DNA of 22,199 nt from Prevotella sp. (GCA_031285625.1 JAITVV010000004.1:1-22199); one strand, 5' to 3'; shown: positions 3,672 through 17,275, counted from the first letter of the stretch. Translations and numbers: made by a program. Notes: generated from the letters alone by a model not told the origin.

Positions 3672-4016
3672 TTAAGGCGTACGGCTCATTTTCAACCGTT
3701 TCAGCCGCGCGCCCGGATCCTCGCGGATACCTTCAACCAGGAGTACCAGGTCACGCCACTCCATAAAGTAGGCTTTTGTTGCAGGATCGTACTGTGGAAG
3801 TCGGTAGTGTCCTTCTTCTAGGTGCTTCATGTACAATACCAATCCTCCGTCTTCGGCATGCAATAATTTAATAATACGCCTATCCCTGTTGATAAAAATA
3901 TACACGTTTCCGCTCCTCACATCCAGTACCACGCCGCTCAGCGAATAGATACCCCGGCGTATATCAGTTGCCCCGGGACACAGGTAGTAGCGCATCGAAT
4001 CGTTCAAGCTAAACAT
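3672..4016 (-). CDS. tnpB: IS66 accessory protein TnpB (Orf2), possibly with a small internal deletion
   Basis: MFSLNDSMRYYLCPGATDIRRGIYSL...YIFINRDRRIIKLLHAEDGGLVLYMKHLEEG. Confidence 0.88.
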   Translation of the reverse strand: MFSLNDSMRYYLCPGATDIRRGIYSLSGVVLDVRSGNVYIFINRDRRIIKLLHAEDGGLVLYMKHLEEGHYRLPQYDPATKAYFMEWRDLVLLVEGIREDPGARLKRLKMSRTP

Positions 4017-4941: not shown

Positions 4942-5361
4942 TTCTCTAATTTATTGCTCTGAATTCCATCTTTATTTCCGATTTACAGCATTTACTTTCT
5001 AAAAGCGAAGCAGATAGGTGCAGATGAATAAAGTCTAAAAATAAGCATTAAAATTTTATTTTTATAAATATCTATTAATAAATTAGATAATATACTTCAA
5101 TAAAATTCTGATTTTTATTTAAAGATTACCTTGCTTCTATGTTGTAATCCAAATAATTTAGTAAAAAGTTTCAACATCATTATAATTTATTTATTTTAGG
5201 GTTAGGGAATTGAAGAGGAATCGGGCTCTGCTGAGGAGCAACCTGACAGCAATAGATTCCTGAGACAGTATGCAGTAATGCAGATATTAGGGAGGCAGTT
5301 TTTGCTTCCCTTTCTTCATTACTGACACTGACTATATGGCTAAAAAAGCCTTTAACAAAAT

Positions 5362-5483
5362 CCTATACCGACATCCTTCTATTAGTGGACGATTTACAAT
5401 CTCCACATTTTCCTTTTCAGTGAATAGGTGTAATTGCCACAATCTCCTAAACGTAGTTTAGCTACAAGCAAGGTATAGTGGTC
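5362..5483 (-). ncRNA. Putative bridge/seek RNA of element A (core two-loop region; transcript ends unknown)
   Basis: Scaffold shared with element B. Segment TACCTTGCTT (5466-5475) is complementary to the right junction; ATAGAAG (5376-5382) matches the donor end. Confidence 0.8.
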
Positions 5484-5534
5484 TATTACTATTGAAGAAA
5501 GTCGATATACAGACTTCTTTTGGGGAAGAATTGA

Positions 5535-6653
5535 TCATTTGACAATTCCTATTTCGTATTTTCTATTATCTCTCAGCATATAATATATTCTGCAAGCTAA
5601 TTTTCTGGCTATCTTAATAATGGCAACATTATATTCTTTACCCTCTTTACGATACCGAATAAATTCCTGCATCATGGCAGGATCTTTCTGAACTGCAATA
5701 TGGGAACTCTCCACCAGCAGCATCCTTAGGTATTTATTGTGGCGAAAAGTAATTTCTCCGGTTTGGAATGTTTCTCCGCTGGAACGATAAGTTGGATGAA
5801 GTCCAAGATAGCCTATGAATTTTTTACTACTGCTAAATCTGTTTATATCTTCAACTTCAGTCAGGATTGACATTGAGGTTATCAAGCTTATGCCGGGGAT
5901 GGTTATCAGATTGTTGAAATTCCTCTGATATTTATCACTCCGGGATAATTCCCTTATATTTCGAGTGACAGTCAGTAGTTTTTCACGATGAGATTCTATT
6001 TTGTGCAGAAGCATATTTTTGGCTATCATACCTGTAGGCTCTACCAAGTCCAGGTTTCTTATCCAACTGACAAACTTCCTCGTGAAATTATAGTTAGTCC
6101 CCTCAAAATCCTGCTTGTACTTTATACCATAAAAATTGAGCATAGATTTAACCTGATTTTTATATCGCTTAATTTCATTGACTATGCCTGTACGAACTCT
6201 TAATAACATTCTGTCATTGAGCGTAGATAAGTTTGGAACGTAGATGCCATGAAGTTGTCCGGCTCGTAATGCTAAAACTATTTTAAGACTATCAATCTGA
6301 TCTGTCTTTTGTACTTCCTGTTTTTGTGATGTCGGAATATCGGCCGGATTGACCACGATATTAGATAAACCTAACTTAGTGAGCTCATAGTGAACAGAAA
6401 AACCACAAAATCCGGCCTCGTAAGCGGTATAATAGTCTCCTCCCGGATAGTGAGTTTGGAGATACCTAAGCAGCATCGCACCATAGGCATCATCTCCTTT
6501 AGCAGATTTCAGTACGGTGGAAGTATTGTTTATTGAGAATGTTCGCCCGATAATATAGTCGGTGGTGATGGTAACAGACCATGAATTCAGATGAACGTCT
6601 AAACCGACATAGATAGGTTGACCTTCAAAATCAATATTTTTTTGTTTGCTCAT
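5535..6653 (-). CDS. IS110-family DEDD recombinase/transposase (372 aa)
   Basis: GLDVH, YEAG, KTDQID (DEDD), TIPGIS, RSSGE (conserved Ser), IARKL. Start MSKQKNIDF chosen by alignment to element B. Confidence 0.95.
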   Translation of the reverse strand: MSKQKNIDFEGQPIYVGLDVHLNSWSVTITTDYIIGRTFSINNTSTVLKSAKGDDAYGAMLLRYLQTHYPGGDYYTAYEAGFCGFSVHYELTKLGLSNIVVNPADIPTSQKQEVQKTDQIDSLKIVLALRAGQLHGIYVPNLSTLNDRMLLRVRTGIVNEIKRYKNQVKSMLNFYGIKYKQDFEGTNYNFTRKFVSWIRNLDLVEPTGMIAKNMLLHKIESHREKLLTVTRNIRELSRSDKYQRNFNNLITIPGISLITSMSILTEVEDINRFSSSKKFIGYLGLHPTYRSSGETFQTGEITFRHNKYLRMLLVESSHIAVQKDPAMMQEFIRYRKEGKEYNVAIIKIARKLACRIYYMLRDNRKYEIGIVK

Positions 6654-7099
6654 AGTGTTTGTATTTAATGGGTTAGTAGATTTCTGTAAATATAAGCACA
6701 GATAAATCACCCAATTACAAACATAGGATCTTCTATTAAACATTCTATGTTCCATTAGCAGGGACAAAACCTAAAATAATTCAGGCTTACACCTAGTGAA
6801 TACAGAATGCATATAGAACAAATGCTCATAAAATATTGAGAGTCTAAATTAACAATTTTCGCATTGTTCAGTAAACTATATTATCTATAATATTGTATTT
6901 TTGTCGGAGAAAATCGTTCTTTGTACTTAATGCAAAATGAAGTGATAAACAGAAAGTCACTCGTTTCTTAACTCTACACCGAAATAGCAAGAACGTATAA
7001 AATAATGTAATTGTCTGATTACTTGGCGATAACTTCTTTGATTTACTCTTCACTGCAAGCAGCAAAAAAGCAGAATATTGTGTATTTGAGAATCCTTTC

Positions 7100-7116
7100 C
7101 GTTACGAATGCGTTAC
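7100..7116 (+). repeat. Putative arm-type integrase binding sites
   Basis: Tandem CGTTAC-GAATG-CGTTAC 200 nt upstream of the integrase. Confidence 0.45.
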
Positions 7117-7315
7117 CTGTTTTTGGCGTTTGCTCCCTGTCAAAATAACGCTTTTCCCGTGAAAAAAGAAAGATTCCCGCCTGTTTTGAAGACAGAGCCG
7201 GAGGTGAGTTAATATTTTACCCGAATCCGGTTTCTTATTCACTGAATCACAATTATTTGCATATCACTGATTAGCTCTATAACAGTTAATTTTGTAACCT
7301 GTAAAAGAGTTAGTT

Positions 7316-8560
7316 ATGACAGAAGTAAAAGTAAGTTTCTACCTCAAACGAAATGAGGAGAAAGCCGATGGGACAGTCCCTGTTTTAGGACGTATCCGCA
7401 TCGGAAAGTCAATGGTGCAGTTCAGTGCCAAAGTAAGTGTCCCCATATCCCTTTGGGATATTACATCCGGCAGGGCTACCGGCAAAAGCAAGACAGCCCT
7501 ATCCGTCAATGCCTTATTGGATAAGACCAGTGTAGCCATCCATTCTGCCTACAAAGATTTGCTGGCGAAAAAAGAAAACATCTCCGCCGAAGAAGTGAAG
7601 AATACGTTTCAAGGCATCGCATCCGGTCAGGATACCCTTGTCAAATATTACGAAGCCCACAATGAGCAATTCCTGAAAAGTGTCGGCGTGAACCGGACTA
7701 TGGAAACTTATAAACACTTCGGGACATCCCTTGCCCATTTGAAACGGTTTATGCGCAAGAAATACAATATTTCCGATATTCCCTTTTTGGCTCTCACTCC
7801 TTCTTTTGTTGCCGACTATGACTACTACCTGAGTGTGGAACTCCAGATGTCATTGAATACCATTGTCGGAATTGTATGTCATTTGCGGAAAGTAGTTAAG
7901 ATAGCCATCAACAGCGGACTGCTTCGTAACGACCCGTTTATCGGCTATAAGTACATCACCCAGCCCATCGTTCCCAAATCCCTGACAGCGGAAGAATTGC
8001 AGATATTGATACATGCGAATCTTTCCCGTCCGAACCTGAATTTCATCCGGGACATGTTCCTGTTTTCGAGTTTTACCGGCATAGCGTTCAGTGATATGCG
8101 AGCCCTCACAAGACAAAACCTGTCCACAGCCGAAGATGGTGTTCGGTGGGTACACCTCAAACGGAAAAAGACCGGCGCACCCTGCCATATCCCGCTTTTG
8201 GAAATCCCCTTGCAACTGATTGAGAAATACAGAGGAATAGCCAAAGACGGTAAGTTATTCCCGATGATCAGTTGCAGCAAGACTAATATATACCTGAAAC
8301 GAATAGCGACGGAATGTGCTATTAACAAGCGAATTACATATCATCAGGCAAGGCACTGCTATGCCAGTGTGGTAACACTCTCTCAGGGTGTCCCGCTGGA
8401 AACGGTAGGCGAATTACTCGGACACACGGATTGGCGAGCCACCCGTATTTATGCACAGGTAAGCCATGAGAAAATTGACGAAGACATGCGCAACCTGAAT
8501 AAACGTCTGTCCGGCAAATTTCATTTGGCGGATGATAAGGTAACAGATACAGTTCAATAA
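7316..8560 (+). CDS. Bacteroidetes site-specific tyrosine integrase (arm-binding + SAM + catalytic domains)
   Basis: KVSFYLK...GRIRI N-terminus; RDMFLFSSFTGIAFSD, KKTG, HQARH, LGH, TRIY. Confidence 0.95.
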   Translation: MTEVKVSFYLKRNEEKADGTVPVLGRIRIGKSMVQFSAKVSVPISLWDITSGRATGKSKTALSVNALLDKTSVAIHSAYKDLLAKKENISAEEVKNTFQGIASGQDTLVKYYEAHNEQFLKSVGVNRTMETYKHFGTSLAHLKRFMRKKYNISDIPFLALTPSFVADYDYYLSVELQMSLNTIVGIVCHLRKVVKIAINSGLLRNDPFIGYKYITQPIVPKSLTAEELQILIHANLSRPNLNFIRDMFLFSSFTGIAFSDMRALTRQNLSTAEDGVRWVHLKRKKTGAPCHIPLLEIPLQLIEKYRGIAKDGKLFPMISCSKTNIYLKRIATECAINKRITYHQARHCYASVVTLSQGVPLETVGELLGHTDWRATRIYAQVSHEKIDEDMRNLNKRLSGKFHLADDKVTDTVQ

Positions 8561-8578
8561 TAATGAAAGAAGAATAAA

Positions 8579-9869
8579 ATGAATACAAAAAATACAGCCC
8601 CAAATAAGAGTAGTAAAGATAATCATACCGCATACAGCACTTTTGCCATTTTATTTTACATTAACAGGCAGAAGATAAAGAAAAACGGGCTGTGTCCATT
8701 GATGGGCAGAATATCCATCAATGCAGAAATCGCACAGTTTTCAGCAGGAATAGACATAGACCCATCCCTTTGGGACGCGAAAGGCTACCGCATGAAAGGC
8801 AAAAGCCGTCCTGCCATCGAAGCGAACTTCCAAATTAAACAATTAAATGACAGGATTAATCAATACTACAACCGGATACTGGACGAGCAGGGCTATATAA
8901 CGGCAGAACTTGTCAAGAATGCCGTAAGCGGAATCGGAAGGAAGAAAGAGAACTTACTGGAACTCTTCCGTGAACATAACGAAGAATATGCCAAACAAGT
9001 CGGCGTTACCCGATCCGGGGAGACCATGCAAAATTACATATCCGTCTATAAGCAAACAGTGCGCTTCCTGCGTGTTCACTACGAGATGGAAAATATACCC
9101 GTCCGGCAACTGGAATTATCATTTATCGAAAAGTTTGATGCATTCCTGCGTATTGAGCAGGGATTTTCCGCCCATACGGTATCCATTTATACAATCATGC
9201 TGCGGAAGATAGTCCGCAGGGCAATCGCTCAGGGTACATTGCATAAAAATCCCTTTGCCGCTTATATTCCCGAACAGCCGCCCCGTAAGCGCAGGCACAT
9301 GACACAGGAAGAACTGGAAAAATTCATGAACGTTCCGGTAGCATCTAAACGCCAGTGCCATTCACGGGACATGTTCGTCTTCTCAACCTTTACCGGCTTG
9401 TCATACGCGGATATGTGCAACCTCTCTCAGGAACATATCCATAAGGACAATAGCAGCGTATGGATTGAAATCAACCGGCAGAAAACCGGTAGCCGGTGCT
9501 ATACCCTTACTGGATATACCCCTGCAAATCATGGAGAAGTACAGGGAAGAACGTAAAGGAAACAAACTGTTCAATATGGTAACACTTTCCCGTGTAACAA
9601 TCAATCTGAACAAGGTCGCCAAATTATGCGGGATAGAAAAGCGAATCACCTATCATCAAAGCCGCCACAATTTCGGCACCCTTGTAACGCTGTCCAAAGG
9701 AGTTCCGTTGGAAACCGTTAGCCAAATGATGGGACACAAGTGCTTCCGCACTACTCAGATTTATGCTAAACTGACACGGCAGAAACTAAACGAAGACATG
9801 AAGAAAGTAAGCGACCGTATCGGTAAAAAATACGAATTTCCTGCTCAAAACAATAACAAAACCCCATAA
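8579..9869 (+). pseudogene. Second tyrosine integrase, frameshifted near 9500
   Basis: ...TGLSYAD...RQKTGSRCY continues in another frame as IPLLDIP...HQSRH...MGH...TQIY; consistent with loss of 2 nt in TGCTATACCC. Confidence 0.9.
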
Positions 9870-9873
9870 ACCA

Positions 9874-10245
9874 ATGAAAAAGAAAATCATAACCATAGAA
9901 AACGGCGTTGTGTCCGTTCCTGCATCAACTGAAATTAGAATGACCATCAGCGAAATTGCGGATTTGTTCGGCATTTACTACCAAATGGTGAAAAGACATA
10001 TCCGTAGCATTGAGAAATCAGGTATTGCGGGTGGGGACGAAAAAATGTCCTGTACGGTTGAGGGAATGAAAATCTATCCCGATTATTACGGTTTGGAAAT
10101 GATTATTGCCATTGCGTTCCGGGTTCAGAGCCACAATGCAGGAATTTTCAGAGAATGGCTCATAAGAAAGGTGGTAACAGTAGCCAACGCATCCGAAATG
10201 AAAATACTGATATGCAGAGAATGGAATAATATCTCTCTGAATTAA
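9874..10245 (+). CDS. Small mobile-element protein, RhuM N-terminal-like / HTH
   Basis: MTISEIADLFG...YYGLEMIIAIAFRVQS...FREW; directly follows the integrase pair. Confidence 0.7.
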   Translation: MKKKIITIENGVVSVPASTEIRMTISEIADLFGIYYQMVKRHIRSIEKSGIAGGDEKMSCTVEGMKIYPDYYGLEMIIAIAFRVQSHNAGIFREWLIRKVVTVANASEMKILICREWNNISLN

Positions 10246-10279
10246 CAGTGGCAGCGAGTTTACAGCCTTCTACTCAACG

Positions 10280-10322
10280 AAATTCCCCAAGCTTTCACAA
10301 TACAGGAAGTTTGGGGATTTTT
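10280..10322. terminator. Probable intrinsic terminator
   Basis: Imperfect stem AAATTCCCCAAGCTT / AAGTTTGGGGATTT followed by Ts. Confidence 0.55.
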
Positions 10323-10574
10323 GTATACTGGCGTGGTTGATAGTCAGGTTATAGATTCTAATTGAAAACTGTGCCACTTTTTTGAAAGAATATCTACGAT
10401 TATAAAGTTGGAAAATCTCAAAGTTTTCTTTTTACTTTTGCTAAACAAAGGTACATTCCGTGAATAAAACGGCAAGTCCCTATGTTTGTAATTGCTTAGC
10501 GTAAAAGTTAAGCATAAATCACAAGATTCTTATATTTAAAGGTTCAATATTACAAACATAAAAATTAATGACTT

Positions 10575-11654
10575 ATGCTTACTCAAAGAAAAGGATTAAA
10601 TTTTGAAGGACAAAATATCTATATAGGTATTGATGTCCATCTAAAGAGTTGGACTGTTAGAATATTAACAGAAACTGTGCCTCACAAAACATTTACACAA
10701 CCGGCACGAGCGGAGATTTTATCTGCTTATCTGTCCGAACATTTTCCTAATGGTAATTATTATTCTGCTTATGAAGCAGGCTTTTGCGGATTCTCTACAC
10801 ACTACCAGTTACAGGAATGCGGAATAAATAACATCGTTATAAATCCCTCCGATGTACCAACCTCTCAAAAAGAAAAATGGCAAAAGAATGATCCCGTCGA
10901 TAGCAGGAAGATCGCCCGTTCATTACGTGCAAAAGAGCTAATAGCCATCCATGTTCCGGATAAGATAGCTTTGTCAGACCGTTCTTTGATTCGGATGAGA
11001 AGTAGTCTGGTAAAGGATATGACAAGATTTAAGTTACGTCTAAAATCTCTCCTGTATTTTTATGGGATAAGGTTTCCAAAAGAATTTGAAAATAATAATA
11101 CTCATTGGTCCAAGCGTTTCATTAAATGGTTGCGGGAGGATATTGTTTTGGATACTTCCGCTCGTCAGGCATTAGACCTGTTTATAAGAGAAGTTGAAAA
11201 CCAGCGCATACTTTTACTTGAAGTGAACAAAAATATACGTCATTTATGTAAAACAGAAGCATATAAAAATAATATTGATTTACTGCAAAGCATTCCGGGT
11301 ATTGGTATTACCAGTGCTATTATACTCATGACACACATAGAAACTATTGATCGTTTTAAAAATACAGACTACTTGGCTTCATATGTAGGGTTGATTCCCA
11401 ACAGCCATTCCAGTGGTGAAAGCGAGAATAAAGGAGAAATGACTTTTAGAGGGCAAAACCACTTGAAAGCTATTTTGGTGGAATCCTCGTGGATTGCAGT
11501 CAGGGTGGATCCTGCTTTATCTTTAAGTTACAATACCTACATACATCGGATGCAACCCAATAAAGCGATCATCCGTATAGCAAGAAAACTGTTGAACCGG
11601 ATTTATTATGTACTGAAAAATCAAAGAGAGTATGTATGCAGTATTGTTAATTGA
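10575..11654 (+). CDS. IS110-family DEDD recombinase/transposase (359 aa)
   Basis: GIDVH, YEAG, KNDPVD, SIPGIG, HSSGE, IARKL. Confidence 0.96.
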   Translation: MLTQRKGLNFEGQNIYIGIDVHLKSWTVRILTETVPHKTFTQPARAEILSAYLSEHFPNGNYYSAYEAGFCGFSTHYQLQECGINNIVINPSDVPTSQKEKWQKNDPVDSRKIARSLRAKELIAIHVPDKIALSDRSLIRMRSSLVKDMTRFKLRLKSLLYFYGIRFPKEFENNNTHWSKRFIKWLREDIVLDTSARQALDLFIREVENQRILLLEVNKNIRHLCKTEAYKNNIDLLQSIPGIGITSAIILMTHIETIDRFKNTDYLASYVGLIPNSHSSGESENKGEMTFRGQNHLKAILVESSWIAVRVDPALSLSYNTYIHRMQPNKAIIRIARKLLNRIYYVLKNQREYVCSIVN

Positions 11655-11682
11655 TTCCTATATGGATATACAATAAATAAAT

Positions 11683-11801
11683 GACCGCTTGGCTTGGTGT
11701 GTAGCTAAATGTCTACTCCGGCAAGAATGCGGCTTTTGCCTATATAAAACTGAACAGGAAAATGTAGCACAAGTCTACTGATAGAAGTATGTCTTTATAG
11801 G
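11683..11801 (+). ncRNA. Putative bridge/seek RNA of element B (core two-loop region; transcript ends unknown)
   Basis: GGCTTGGTGT (11691-11700) is the reverse complement of 12025-12034; CGGCAA (11719-11724) equals 10470-10475; ATAGAAGT (11781-11788) equals the predicted circle junction. Confidence 0.85.
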
Positions 11802-11912
11802 ATATTTGCTGGATGTATAACATAGAAAACACAAGTCGTTTTCTACTATAATGCTATCATTGACTTTTGATAGCATAGATATTTATTGCATAATAAGTGA
11901 GTCCATTGGAAC

Positions 11913-11974
11913 ATATTTTTTCTTTTCAAACGCCCTCGAAGGTTTGGGGGAGGGGATTTGAAAAGAAAAAATAT
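11913..11974. repeat. Long hairpin in the 3' end of element B
   Basis: Perfect 18-bp inverted repeat ATATTTTTTCTTTTCAAA (11913-11930 / 11957-11974). Confidence 0.8.
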
Positions 11975-12187
11975 TTAGGAGAGTCGTGTTATTTTAGCTT
12001 AATTTATTTGGATTACAACATAGAACACCAAGCCTACGGTTTTTTGAAATATCTTCCTTTCTCGTGCCTCAAAAGAGCAAATTTCAAAAAAGTGTTGCCT
12101 GCTTTATTCTCTGCATGGATGAGATGTTTATCAAATCTAAAAAGGAAAAAAATATTGTTTGGTGTGGGTGGGGCTGTGTTTTTGCGA

Positions 12188-14423: not shown

Positions 14424-14819
14424 TTGGAAAAAGACAATCAAGATACCGACAGGAAGAAAGGTGGTCGCCCGAAGAAGAGTACCGTCAGCTGGAAGAGCAA
14501 GACTATCGGGGTCTGCTTCTCCGAGCCGGAACTCTATGCCATCCGGCACAGGGCGGCTAAAGCCAATCTTCCTGTTAGTGTCTATTGTCATGATGCGGTT
14601 TTGAATGGAGTAATCAAAGAACCTCTCAAGAAAGAGGACTTGGAAACATTGAAAGGTCTGGTGAATGAGGGAAACAATCTGAATCAAATAGCTAAGACCG
14701 CCAAGTTTTTAGGTGCTAAACGGCTTGAAAATGCAGCATTACCACTGTAGGAAACCATGCAAAATATCATAAACAAACTGTCTGATGATTGGAAAAATAG
14801 TAAAAGGAAGAAGCTTTAA
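14424..14819 (+). pseudogene. mobC: MobC-like relaxosome accessory protein with premature stop
   Basis: KKGGRPKK...GNNLNQIAK; TAG at 14748-14750, with the frame continuing ETMQNIINKLSDDWK to overlap the relaxase start. Confidence 0.75.
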
Positions 14820-15663
14820 GGGATGCGTTTCGTATGTCATGGATGCAAAAGATACCAGACTTTTAGCAGGTGAAGGAGTATTTGAAACGGATGTGAAATC
14901 TATTATCAACAGCTTTTACATGCAAAGTTTACTCAATCCGAAGCTGTCGAAATGTGTCGGACACATCCCACTTTCGTTCTCTCCCGATGACAGGGAACGG
15001 CTAACAGATCACTTTATGAAATGCTTAGCTAAAGAATATATGAAAGCAATGGGCATAGAAAATACACAGTATATTATTGTAAGGCACAACAATACGAATC
15101 ATCCGCATTGCCATATTGTATTCAACTGGGTGAATAACGATGGCAAAACCATGTCCGACAAGAATGACCAATATCGGAATGAGAAAATCTGTAAACAGTT
15201 AAAAGACAAGTATAATTTGACGTATGGCAAAGGAAAAGAGAAGGTTAATGTTCAAAAACTCAAGGGAGTGGAACATACCAAGTATGAAATCTACCATGCA
15301 GTAAAAGATGCTCTGCCAAAAGTCATGAACTGGCAACAGTTTGAATACCTATTAGATAAACAGGGAATATCCATTGAGTACAAACACAGGGGGCAGACCG
15401 ATGAAGTACAGGGTATCTCATTCCGAAAAGGGGAACATTGTTTCAAGGGTTCAGACATCGACCGGAAATTCAGTTTCTCCAAATTGGATGTAATTCTAAA
15501 TGAGAATAGCTACATTCAGAAACAGCAGCAAGAGCAAAGACAGCAGGTAGTTAGTCCGAATGAAACACAGCATACAGGCAATGCTGTTTCAGAAAATATT
15601 GTATCAGGAATAGCAAATGTGGTATCCGGTATCGGAAGAGATTCTATTTATATAAAGCTCTAA
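14785..15663 (+). CDS. Relaxase/mobilization nuclease (MOBP-type), probably C-terminally truncated
   Basis: MIGKIVKGRSFKGCVSY, HIPLSF, RHNNTNHPHCHIVFN (HUH motif); 3' end runs into an opposite-strand integrase remnant. Confidence 0.88.
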   Translation: MIGKIVKGRSFKGCVSYVMDAKDTRLLAGEGVFETDVKSIINSFYMQSLLNPKLSKCVGHIPLSFSPDDRERLTDHFMKCLAKEYMKAMGIENTQYIIVRHNNTNHPHCHIVFNWVNNDGKTMSDKNDQYRNEKICKQLKDKYNLTYGKGKEKVNVQKLKGVEHTKYEIYHAVKDALPKVMNWQQFEYLLDKQGISIEYKHRGQTDEVQGISFRKGEHCFKGSDIDRKFSFSKLDVILNENSYIQKQQQEQRQQVVSPNETQHTGNAVSENIVSGIANVVSGIGRDSIYIKL

Positions 15664-16054: not shown

Positions 16055-17275
16055 ATGATTGTCAAATTTAGCGTGCAGAATTTCGGCTCTATCAAAGACG
16101 AACAAATATTGTCTTTTGAAGCTGATAAGTCAGAACATTTAGAGGATTATTATATAATTCCGATTAATGGTTTGAGATTATTGAAGTTGGGATTAATATA
16201 TGGGGCTAATGCTTCGGGGAAAACTACAATATTGAAAGCTCTTAATTTTTTGAGGGAGATAGTGATATTTCCCAAAGAAAAAAAGATTGATAATTTTGAT
16301 TTTAGCCCTTTCTTATTTGATGCAGAAACACCTAAACAGAATACAATTCTATCTATTGAGTTTATACAAAATTCAGTACGGTATTATTATGAAGTAGAAT
16401 TGAATAAGAAGGCTATCATAAGAGAAGAATTGAATTTTTACAATCCCAATAAAGCAAACGTCTTTAAAAGAACTACTAATCTTAATACTCAATTTTCCGA
16501 AATAACCTTCGGTAGCAAGATTAAGATTGACAAGGTTTTTGAAAAAACGTTAGAATCAAATACGCTTTGGAACAATACAGTATTAGGAGGATTCCTCAAA
16601 ACCAATATTGAGCTTAAAGAATTGAAAGACGCCATAGATTGGTTTTCTATTACATTAAGCCCGATGGTTCGTAATCATACTTATTTGGAAGCAATAGTAA
16701 GTGAATTTATTGATGAACTGGCTATAAATAAGAAAAGTATTGTAAAAACTTTACAAAAAGCAGATTTTAATATTTCAAATATCTATCTGAAAGAAAAAGT
16801 TAAAACTGTAGGGCTTACCTTTTATGATATTAAATTGGAACATACAATAAATAATGAAAGATACCAGCTACCCTTTGATTTGGAATCAGAAGGAACACAG
16901 AGGTATTATAGTTTAGCAGGGCTGCTATATCTTACAATTAAAAATTCATCTATTTTTCCAATAGATGAATTGGAATCTTCTCTTCACCCTGATTTATATA
17001 CTCATTTTTTATTATCATTCTTGGTAAATTCAAAGAAGTCTCAAATCATTGCGACTACCCATAATCGAGAAATACTGAATAATAAAGATATTTTCAGAAA
17101 CGATGCTATTTGGATTACAGATAAATCTGAAAATTCTGCTACCGAACTTTATTCTCTTTCCGATTTTGACACATCGGTAATAAGGGATACAAGTAATATT
17201 TACAATGCTTATAAAATAGGTAAACTTGGCGGTATTCCTAATCTGGGAGACTACTACATTGATATTGAAGAATGA
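16055..17275 (+). CDS. ABC/AAA_21 ATPase (RloA / AbiLi-like)
   Basis: FSVQNFGSIK, Walker A GANASGKT, signature ESEGT, Walker B IDELESSLHP, TTHN, C-terminal YKIGKLGGIP. Confidence 0.9.
   Translation: MIVKFSVQNFGSIKDEQILSFEADKSEHLEDYYIIPINGLRLLKLGLIYGANASGKTTILKALNFLREIVIFPKEKKIDNFDFSPFLFDAETPKQNTILSIEFIQNSVRYYYEVELNKKAIIREELNFYNPNKANVFKRTTNLNTQFSEITFGSKIKIDKVFEKTLESNTLWNNTVLGGFLKTNIELKELKDAIDWFSITLSPMVRNHTYLEAIVSEFIDELAINKKSIVKTLQKADFNISNIYLKEKVKTVGLTFYDIKLEHTINNERYQLPFDLESEGTQRYYSLAGLLYLTIKNSSIFPIDELESSLHPDLYTHFLLSFLVNSKKSQIIATTHNREILNNKDIFRNDAIWITDKSENSATELYSLSDFDTSVIRDTSNIYNAYKIGKLGGIPNLGDYYIDIEE

Follow-up and report, generated by a model that had tools for sequence, protein, structure and literature searches.

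The 22,199-nucleotide (nt) stretch of Prevotella sp. DNA analysed here (GCA_031285625.1, JAITVV010000004.1:1-22199; hereafter the window) is contig C68 of a genome of 4.84 Mb in 96 contigs, and it carries two elements, A and B, in opposite orientation. It raises the question of whether the non-coding 3' end of each element encodes an RNA that specifies the site at which the element is inserted. The original prediction, made from the sequence alone, held that both are IS110-family recombinase elements which share a two-loop scaffold and differ in their guides. This is borne out by Pfam, by the NCBIfam model NF033542, and by a covariance model built here (R1). The gene family, the conserved structure with its compensatory changes, the covariation of guides and flanks among relatives, and the existence of empty target sites, all of which were observed here, make it very probable that A and B are insertion sequences (ISs) of the IS110 family, distantly related to each other, with an IS1111-type layout and a 3'-encoded, bispecific, two-loop guide RNA (bridge RNA or seekRNA) of approximately 130 nt. 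By analogy with published relatives, this structure would be made as RNA, bind the recombinase, and direct recombination. The novelty implied by the original prediction does not hold, as a 3'-encoded bispecific RNA is already a published trait of IS1111-type elements in the available text of two reports (PMC11208160, PMC11187229).

Recombinases and relatives of A and B

Both recombinases exhibit the N-terminal DEDD/RuvC-like domain (PF01548) and the C-terminal Tnp domain (PF02371) above the Pfam cutoffs. The E-values of the matches to Transposase_20 and DEDD_Tnp_IS110 are 3.3e-19 and 2.7e-08, respectively, for A, and 3.7e-21 and 3.7e-12 for B. The model NF033542, named 'IS110 family RNA-guided transposase', scores 175 bits for A and 197 bits for B, with a cutoff of 140. 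The two proteins are 42-43% identical to each other, and that of B also matches the solved recombinases of ISCro4 (E 1.3e-10) and IS621 (E 2.7e-09). In the alignment to ISCro4, which was made for B only, the D in IGIDV, the E in YEAG, and the D..D in NDPVDS are kept, and the SG in SSGES is opposite ESGSS. These may correspond to the catalytic acidic residues and the conserved serine of IS621.

In each element, the gene is followed by a long non-coding region and preceded by a short one: 399 nt downstream (5136-5534) vs 76 nt upstream (6654-6729) in A, and 370 nt downstream (11655-12024) vs 98 nt upstream (10477-10574) in B. The organisation that we propose would comprise a short left end, a DEDD recombinase gene, and a long 3' non-coding end encoding the guide RNA. 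A and B can be aligned over their full length, with the stems kept and loop 1 divergent.

A pattern scan of species-representative genomes with both recombinases yielded 411 related loci. The best 80 of these 411, which are not a random sample, were analysed, and the statements on relatives below refer to them. According to the record titles, they are mostly Bacteroidota, including Bacteroidaceae, Dysgonomonas, Parabacteroides, Paludibacter, Prolixibacteraceae, and others, with a few bins labelled otherwise. As the titles also give Mangrovibacterium and Draconibacterium in addition to Prolixibacteraceae, the clade is not limited to the Bacteroidales, as had been proposed.

A conserved two-loop structure in the 3' end

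Every string quoted in the original prediction is present in A and B where it had been placed, and the predicted RNA gene lies 3' of the recombinase gene in both elements (Table 1). The identical layout is observed downstream of every recombinase gene among the relatives. An alignment of 32 diverse examples (MAFFT seed), analysed with RNAalifold, gave two stem-loop-stem modules in which 23 of the 30 pairs show a compensatory change, and it was used for building the covariance model R1. In the window, R1 matches only the A and B regions. It matches 78 of the 80 related loci, the exceptions being L012 and L014, which end before the region. In the whole genome, the only other match is a weak one of 39 bits on C2, at a distant IS110 gene, and 7 of 151 sampled genomes of the same order, this genome included, have a match at E <=1e-5.

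In 63 distinct rows, pairing is found in 93.4% of the cells vs 79.6% when shuffled and 32-52% with slid partners, and all 30 pairs vary on both sides somewhere in the model-fitted alignment of these rows. A covariance model from homologous 3' ends was a check proposed beforehand; once built, it finds both elements, and the guides covary with the flanks, as detailed below. The exact loop-2 strings of the original prediction are rare among relatives in a regular-expression scan, because the sequences have diverged.

The 3' end of B contains, downstream of the RNA gene, a near-perfect hairpin of 62 nt (11913-11974), which is absent from A at the aligned place. The match of this hairpin to a plant microRNA model, with E-values of 0.27 and 0.94 on the two strands, reflects its shape only.

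Guides of loop 1 covary with the flanks

In the proposed mechanism, loop 1 is the predicted target loop. Its 3' side would correspond in sequence to the top strand in the left half-site (approximately 5 nt plus AG) and would pair with the bottom strand; it would continue for 1-3 nt, mostly matching the first bases of the element. Its 5' side would be complementary to the AG and the right half-site of the target.

The window contains precisely two occurrences of AAGCAAGGTA: one is at the junction of A (5127-5136, minus strand), and the other, in complementary form, is part of the guide (5466-5475). The chance expectation is 0.02, and two matches were found in 0 of 100 shuffles. Similarly, ACACCAAGCC occurs exactly twice, at 12025-12034 and as its complement at 11691-11700, with a chance expectation of 0.00. 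The 10/10 complementarity that had been claimed between guide and right junction was recovered in A and in B alike. The CGGCAA of the loop 1 3' side of B, which had been equated with its left flank (10470-10475), gives a match that is one base longer (CGGCAAG).

The relation between guides and flanks was then scored in 80 rows (78 loci plus A and B), with the left junction within the fetched DNA in 74 and the right junction in 71. The ends of the elements were set by the family motifs, which are AG followed by NCCCTATGTTTG on the left and ACAACATAGA followed by AG on the right, and in multi-copy families similarity stops exactly at these motif-defined ends. One representative was kept per distinct guide and compared with 2000 shuffled pairings, and the right guide was allowed three registers in the observed and the shuffled data alike. 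The right half-site matches the loop 1 5' side at a mean of 5.98 of 7 positions (45 guides), whereas shuffled pairings gave 3.08, with a standard deviation of 0.16 and a maximum of 3.60. A score of 7 was obtained by 19 guides, 6 by 16, 5 by five, 4 by two, 3 by two, and 1 by one. The five bases to the left of AG match the loop 1 3' side at a mean of 4.09 of 5 (46 guides), whereas the shuffled mean was 1.52 and the maximum 2.07. By position, the guides reach over approximately 7-8 bases on the right and 5 on the left. The three bases after AG in the loop 1 3' side match the first bases of the element in 30, 26, and 11 of the 46 guides, respectively. The claim that loop 1 tracks the flanks of its element thus stands for both sides across 45-46 distinct guide sets, and falls short for the left guide of A, which scores only 3/5.

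Target sites

The target proposed for B, CGGCAACACCAAGCC, was found uninterrupted, and identical to the proposed sequence, in four other genomes (L085, L086, L087, and L089), in which the module reads ...AACG[G/T/C]CAACACC[A/G]AGCC.... The right flank of B is part of a conserved intergenic module. This module (10420-10476 plus 12025-12150 in the window) is approximately 150-200 nt long and lies between converging genes of an integrative mobilisable element; further copies, in the same genome (C12:44509-44618) and in L088, are without the target sequence. B is 88.5% identical to L019, from an uncultured Parabacteroides record, which resides in the same module. Over 100 nt, the flanks of the two elements show similarities of 81% and 66%, and they are unrelated at distances of more than approximately 400 nt. 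In view of this divergence within a homologous module, B may be an old resident. Among 61 relatives, only one partial homologue of the left flank of B and one match of 27 nt were found.

The six-copy element L015 offers a further case. Its predicted empty target (four bases on the left, a single AG, and seven bases on the right) has 16 occurrences in its 6.6-Mb genome vs 1 for the control. The target is the end of a repeated sequence, with 16 unoccupied sites of 13 nt (e.g. L129-L136, genome G435) beside six occupied ones.

With regard to A, the right guide and the right half-site CAAGGTAATC are common to L001 and L002, from Dysgonomonas gadei and a Mangrovibacterium bin (recombinase 76% identical), and the left guide differs from those of both. 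An empty site for A was not found in 401 genomes of the same order by searches with both flanks, which gave only short AT-rich matches. Outside the left end of A, at a distance of 13 nt (11 nt from the flanking AG copy), lies a remnant resembling a right end, whose sequence suggests an earlier or tandem copy. The TTTAGG at 6770-6775 was considered as the true left half-site of A, displaced by 38 nt, and was rejected, as it lies inside this remnant; its resemblance to the left guide of A is probably a coincidence.

Core dinucleotide and junction asymmetry

The original prediction assigned an AA core to the clade. This assignment fits only the four junctions of the window, since the base preceding the left AG in the relatives is T in 23, A in 19, C in 14, and G in 8 of 64. 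What is repeated at both junctions is the dinucleotide AG, which is present at 64/64 left and 58/66 right junctions. The right junctions that deviate exhibit AA (3), GG (3), and AC (2), the AC cases being B and L019. Among 56 guide sets, the 3' side of loop 1 contains AG in 56/56, and CT or CTT terminates the 5' side in 46/56. In the mechanism that we propose, the recombinase-RNA complex would bring the joined ends of the excised circle to the target, and strand exchange would occur at the shared A(G). The element would then be flanked by the left part of the target and AG on the left (LT-AG), and by AG and the right part on the right (AG-RT).

In B, the target has AC where the donor has AG, and after insertion the left junction is AG and the right junction is AC. 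The right guide of B, GGCTTGGTGT, complements AC plus ACCAAGCC, whereas the left guide reads CGGCA-AG. Across the relatives, the base after the shared A is always the G of the donor at the left junction (0/64 depart) and departs only at the right junction (8/66). The departing base was confirmed as that of the target for the B site only, by means of the empty sites. This asymmetry fits a single effective crossover beside the shared A, or a single exchanged strand being inherited. It also fits one-strand exchange with subsequent replication, which a 2025 preprint proposes for another IS110 element; that element has been reported to integrate predominantly via top-strand insertion (preprint 10.1101/2025.10.25.684509, available text).

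These observations permit a tentative reading, to which we give somewhat less than an even chance, in which the clade is looser and more modular in design than IS621: the one base that donor and target always have in common is A, and some relatives have target loops in tandem. Under this reading, the right guide of the B lineage would be tuned to a target core, AC, that differs from the AG of the donor.

Five loci contain extra complete target loops in tandem, two or three in number and with differing guides, before a single donor loop (Table 1). The flanks of L029 fit the first of its three loops (left 6/6, right 6/8 as scored), and inspection by eye of this first loop gives, with the reverse complement AGGCCGGGC, nine contiguous bases across the right junction. 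The right side of the donor-proximal loop of L029 scores only 3/8; in the other four loci, it is the donor-proximal module that fits. A single element with tandem loops may address several targets.

Donor loop, element ends, and a possible joined-end promoter

Loop 2 is the predicted donor loop. Its 3' side, ATAGA-AG, would correspond to the right end plus the core, and its 5' side would complement the left end over its first 4-5 nt. ATAGA-AG is indeed present in every member, in agreement with the right end and the junction dinucleotide. The shared donor end ATAGAAG attributed to loop 2 is thus where it was expected, and the complement of the left end, which had not been part of that claim, is present as well, with combinations such as GCCC/GGGC, GCCG/CGGC, ATCC/GGAT, and ACCC/GGGT. 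The mean score of the 5' side against the left end is 3.84/5 (37 pairs) vs 3.40 in 2000 shuffles (max 3.65), which is a weak test because the ends hardly vary. One mismatch each is found in A, in B, and in the four-copy family L004.

The subterminal inverted repeats, CTATGTTTGTAAT (A 6726-6714, B 10480-10492) and ATTACAACATAG (A 5148-5137, B 12012-12023), match at 12/13 positions with one indel, and they are kept in all relatives. In an excised circle, the joined right and left ends would read ...ACAACATAGA-AG-NCCCTATG..., and in B (12005-12024 joined to 10477-10492) they would place a TTTG 19-20 nt upstream of TATGTTTG. The same spacing is found in 29 of 50 distinct elements, A and B included. 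By eye, TATGTTTG was counted in 49 of the 50 listed left ends, the remaining one, L032, having TATGTTTA. Judged by its sequence, the joined-end motif fits the Bacteroidetes -33/-7 promoter consensus, with its TAnnTTTG -7 box (PMC7366714, available text). Such a promoter would face the recombinase gene and would form only in the excised circle.

Table 1. Positions of elements A and B, their genes, predicted RNA features and target half-sites in the window, and of the tandem target loops in related loci
Feature	Position	Strand	Content or basis
Element A	5136-6729	minus	Ends from alignment with B and family-wide end motifs; flanking AG copies 5134-5135 and 6730-6731 excluded
Element B	10477-12024	plus	Same end criteria, plus alignment with L019; flanking AG 10475-10476 and AC 12025-12026 excluded
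Recombinase gene of A, 372 aa	5535-6653	minus	Full-length open frame; Pfam and NCBIfam
Recombinase gene of B, 359 aa	10575-11654	plus	Full-length open frame; Pfam, NCBIfam, and structure matches
Predicted bridge RNA (seekRNA) gene of A	5357-5489	minus	Model R1 95.3 bits, E 4e-19; target loop 5441-5477, donor loop 5368-5423
Predicted bridge RNA (seekRNA) gene of B	11677-11806	plus	Model R1 96.4 bits, E 2e-19; target loop 11689-11728, donor loop 11745-11795
Loop 1 of A, 5' part	5483-5466	minus	GACCAC 5483-5478; 12-nt loop TATACCTTGCTT 5477-5466
Loop 1 of A, 3' part	5465-5436	minus	Hairpin GTAG-CTAAA-CTAC 5465-5453; 12-nt loop GTTTAGGAGATT 5452-5441; GTGGC 5440-5436
Loop 1 of B, 5' part	11683-11700	plus	GACCGC 11683-11688; TTGGCTTGGTGT 11689-11700
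Loop 1 of B, 3' part	11701-11733	plus	Hairpin 11701-11716; TCCGGCAAGAAT 11717-11728; GCGGC 11729-11733
Loop 2	A 5428-5362; B 11739-11801		CCTAT ... GTRG-loop-CYAC ... ATAGAAG ... TATAGG
Right half-site of A target (CAAGGTA) and AG copy	5127-5135	minus	Complementary to loop 1 5' side, 10/10
Left half-site of B target (CGGCA) and AG	10470-10476	plus	Identical to loop 1 3' side 11720-11726
AC and right half-site ACCAAGCC of B target	12025-12034	plus	Complementary to 11691-11700, 10/10
Subterminal inverted repeat of B	Left arm 10480-10492; right arm 12012-12023	plus	Left arm contains TATGTTTG, which fits the Bacteroidetes -7 box TAnnTTTG
Right-end-like remnant, 42 nt	6743-6784	minus	Local alignment with the right end of A itself: CTGAATTATTT..GG..AACATAGAA
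Tandem target loops in related loci	L029:1341-1736; L025:3604-3901; L028:3604-3901 and 5599-5896; L061:3607-3900; L079:3604-3901

Transcript data and alternative explanations

One public metatranscriptome run, consisting of assembled contigs only, shares 5% of the sampled words. It contains a contig of 1569 nt from a relative that is approximately 94% like A (85 differences, 4 gaps), which spans 5190-6731 and continues into a flank like that of L002. Short contigs across the right junction of A diverge just past the half-site. B and the interval between A and B have no cover, which is uninformative.

Several observations weigh against A and B being RNA-guided elements of the kind proposed. No transcript of A or B was seen in these contigs, and contigs from an RNA library show neither transcription nor RNA ends. 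A scan of the window gave no match to an Rfam family at the A or B regions with E up to 1, and the A and B regions, when folded singly, do not outperform shuffled sequences (z -1.60 and +0.24, respectively). The 63-row alignment was fitted to R1, and the 23/30 pairs of the MAFFT seed are the more independent figure. The shuffles used for the target and donor guides ignore relatedness among elements. The left guide of A reaches, against its adjacent flank, a score that is equalled in 18% of the shuffled pairings. In B, the positions that read the core disagree, with AC on the 5' side and AG on the 3' side. Finally, A and B are each single-copy in the genome and show no sign of recent movement.

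The complementarity between loop and flank could in principle be due to chance, as the window is AT-rich and the original prediction rested on two elements only. We reject this explanation, whose probability we consider negligible: each of the two 10-mers occurs twice, where 0.00-0.02 are expected, and the relation is repeated in 45-46 guide sets, above all 2000 shuffles. A second explanation is that the 3' structure acts as DNA, either as folded single-stranded transposon DNA or as protein-bound DNA that pairs with the target. In IS200/IS605 elements, subterminal DNA hairpins and short DNA guide sequences select the cleavage site. Structure and flank covariation, being read from DNA, do not by themselves separate RNA from single-stranded DNA, and no transcript was observed in the metatranscriptome contigs. 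This explanation is nevertheless very unlikely in view of the proteins, which are homologous to the recombinases of IS621 and ISCro4 and reach the 'RNA-guided transposase' model NF033542. In addition, G-U pairs are common on the modelled strand, e.g. 18 UG at pair 92/185 and 11 GU at pair 108/172. As the complement of a G-U pair (C-A) is unpaired on the other strand, the structure belongs to one strand, which is the sense strand of the gene. Moreover, the RNA of IS1111-type relatives co-purifies with the transposase and is needed for movement (PMC11187229, available text).

A guide RNA encoded in the 3' end of each element is thus the reading that we retain, and the remaining alternative concerns the present activity of the elements, not their identity. 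A and B could be fossil copies, in which the matches record old insertions and of which one or both are now immobile. The single-copy state of each element would agree with this, as would the homologous sites of B and L019, whose identity of 88.5% is consistent with long residence, and the left side of A, where the flank is disturbed by the end remnant and the left guide fits poorly. In contrast, both reading frames are open at full length, the ends and the subterminal repeats are intact, and the RNA regions of A and B score 95-96 bits with R1 vs 99 for the four-copy family L004. We consider fossil copies rather unlikely, though a serious possibility.

Comparison with known systems

The published systems are compared here on the basis of the available text of each source. 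The elements of the IS1111 group have long right ends, which in 93% of them contain a predicted bridge RNA (Durrant et al. 2024, PMC11208160). The downstream non-coding region of four members (ISEc11, ISKpn4, ISPa11, and ISPst6) yields a seekRNA, which co-purifies with the transposase, is required for movement, and carries the segment that matches the top strand on the 5' side of the one for the bottom strand (Siddiquee et al. 2024, PMC11187229). A and B resemble these elements in having a DEDD recombinase, a long downstream non-coding region, and subterminal inverted repeats, which are of 12-13 nt here, with one indel. They also have the top-strand-complementary segment 5' of the bottom-strand one, with an overlap at the crossover, and each lineage has its own target, often in other mobile elements or repeats.

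In the IS1111 group, the subterminal inverted repeats measure approximately 7-17 bp, and the ends extend beyond them by 7 (or 6) bp at the left terminus and by 3 bp at the right (PMC11187229). These extensions are not matched in A and B, which exhibit NCC with or without the shared (A)G on the left (3-5 nt) and A plus the shared A(G) on the right (1-3 nt). Because of these shorter extensions, we call A and B IS1111-type in layout and do not assign them to the IS1111 group. They further differ from the elements of that paper in their hosts, which are Bacteroidota, and in their joined ends, which give a TTTG/TAnnTTTG motif and not -35/-10 boxes. Their core is AG, and their donor loop is a simple internal loop, unlike the published IS1111 elements; many IS1111 orthologues place the donor-binding bases in a multi-loop (PMC11208160).

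The bridge RNA of IS621 (PMC11208160; structures 8WT6 and others) likewise comprises a target and a donor loop, both internal, and serves a homologous recombinase. In both systems, the left guide of each loop is directed at the bottom strand and the right guide at the top strand, and both guides read a two-base core. In contrast, the IS621 RNA is located 5' of the gene, in the left end, its guide order is reversed, and its core is CT instead of AG.

The approach followed here, in which covariance models of the non-coding ends adjacent to the recombinase gene are combined with target and donor covariation, is also that of the bridge-RNA catalogues (PMC11208160 Fig. 6; bioRxiv 10.64898/2026.10.21.760802). 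The latter reports 86 covariance models, from which 32,190 bridge RNAs (loci) were predicted, and the clade of A and B is not named in its available text. Nor is the clade named in the titles or abstract openings of the papers listed by literature searches on IS110/IS1111 bridge RNAs; members may be included in the ISfinder tables that supplement PMC11208160 and PMC11187229.

Genomic setting

Between A and B lie two tyrosine-integrase genes and a RhuM-like gene, as identified by a Pfam scan, and to the right of B are DUF3876 and HTH_17 genes and a MobA/VirD2 relaxase. Given these integrase and relaxase neighbours, the setting is that of an integrative, mobilisable element. The second integrase gene is apparently split into overlapping frames (8579-9556 and 9465-9869), the first of which covers no more than the beginning of the catalytic domain (Pfam residues 240-304). 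The window as a whole is a mosaic of mobile and defence-like genes, with an IS66 Orf2, a further integrase, a MobA/VirD2 relaxase, and an AAA_21 ATPase at 3672-4016, 1721-2437, 14785-15663, and 16055-17275.

Elsewhere in the same genome, two more distant IS110-family genes are found (C63:2114-3165 and C2:30326-33078). One of them is frame-shifted, the other is interrupted by approximately 1.7 kb, and both have a different 3' scaffold.

Significance

A and B do not define a new class, as the IS1111-type 3'-encoded guide RNA and its natural guide diversity were published in 2024 and large catalogues exist. What they illustrate is that an RNA-guided recombination system, together with its target, is recoverable by a reader from raw sequence alone. 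They belong to a well-populated clade, with 411 recombinase relatives in species-representative genomes, for which guide rules can be given: approximately 7-8 nt on the right, approximately 5 nt on the left, and an AG core. The leads of interest are the asymmetry of the junctions, the AC/AG core mismatch of the B lineage, and the tandem target loops, which are the most interesting of the three. For genome engineering in Bacteroidota, native systems with promoter motifs of the host type could be useful starting material.

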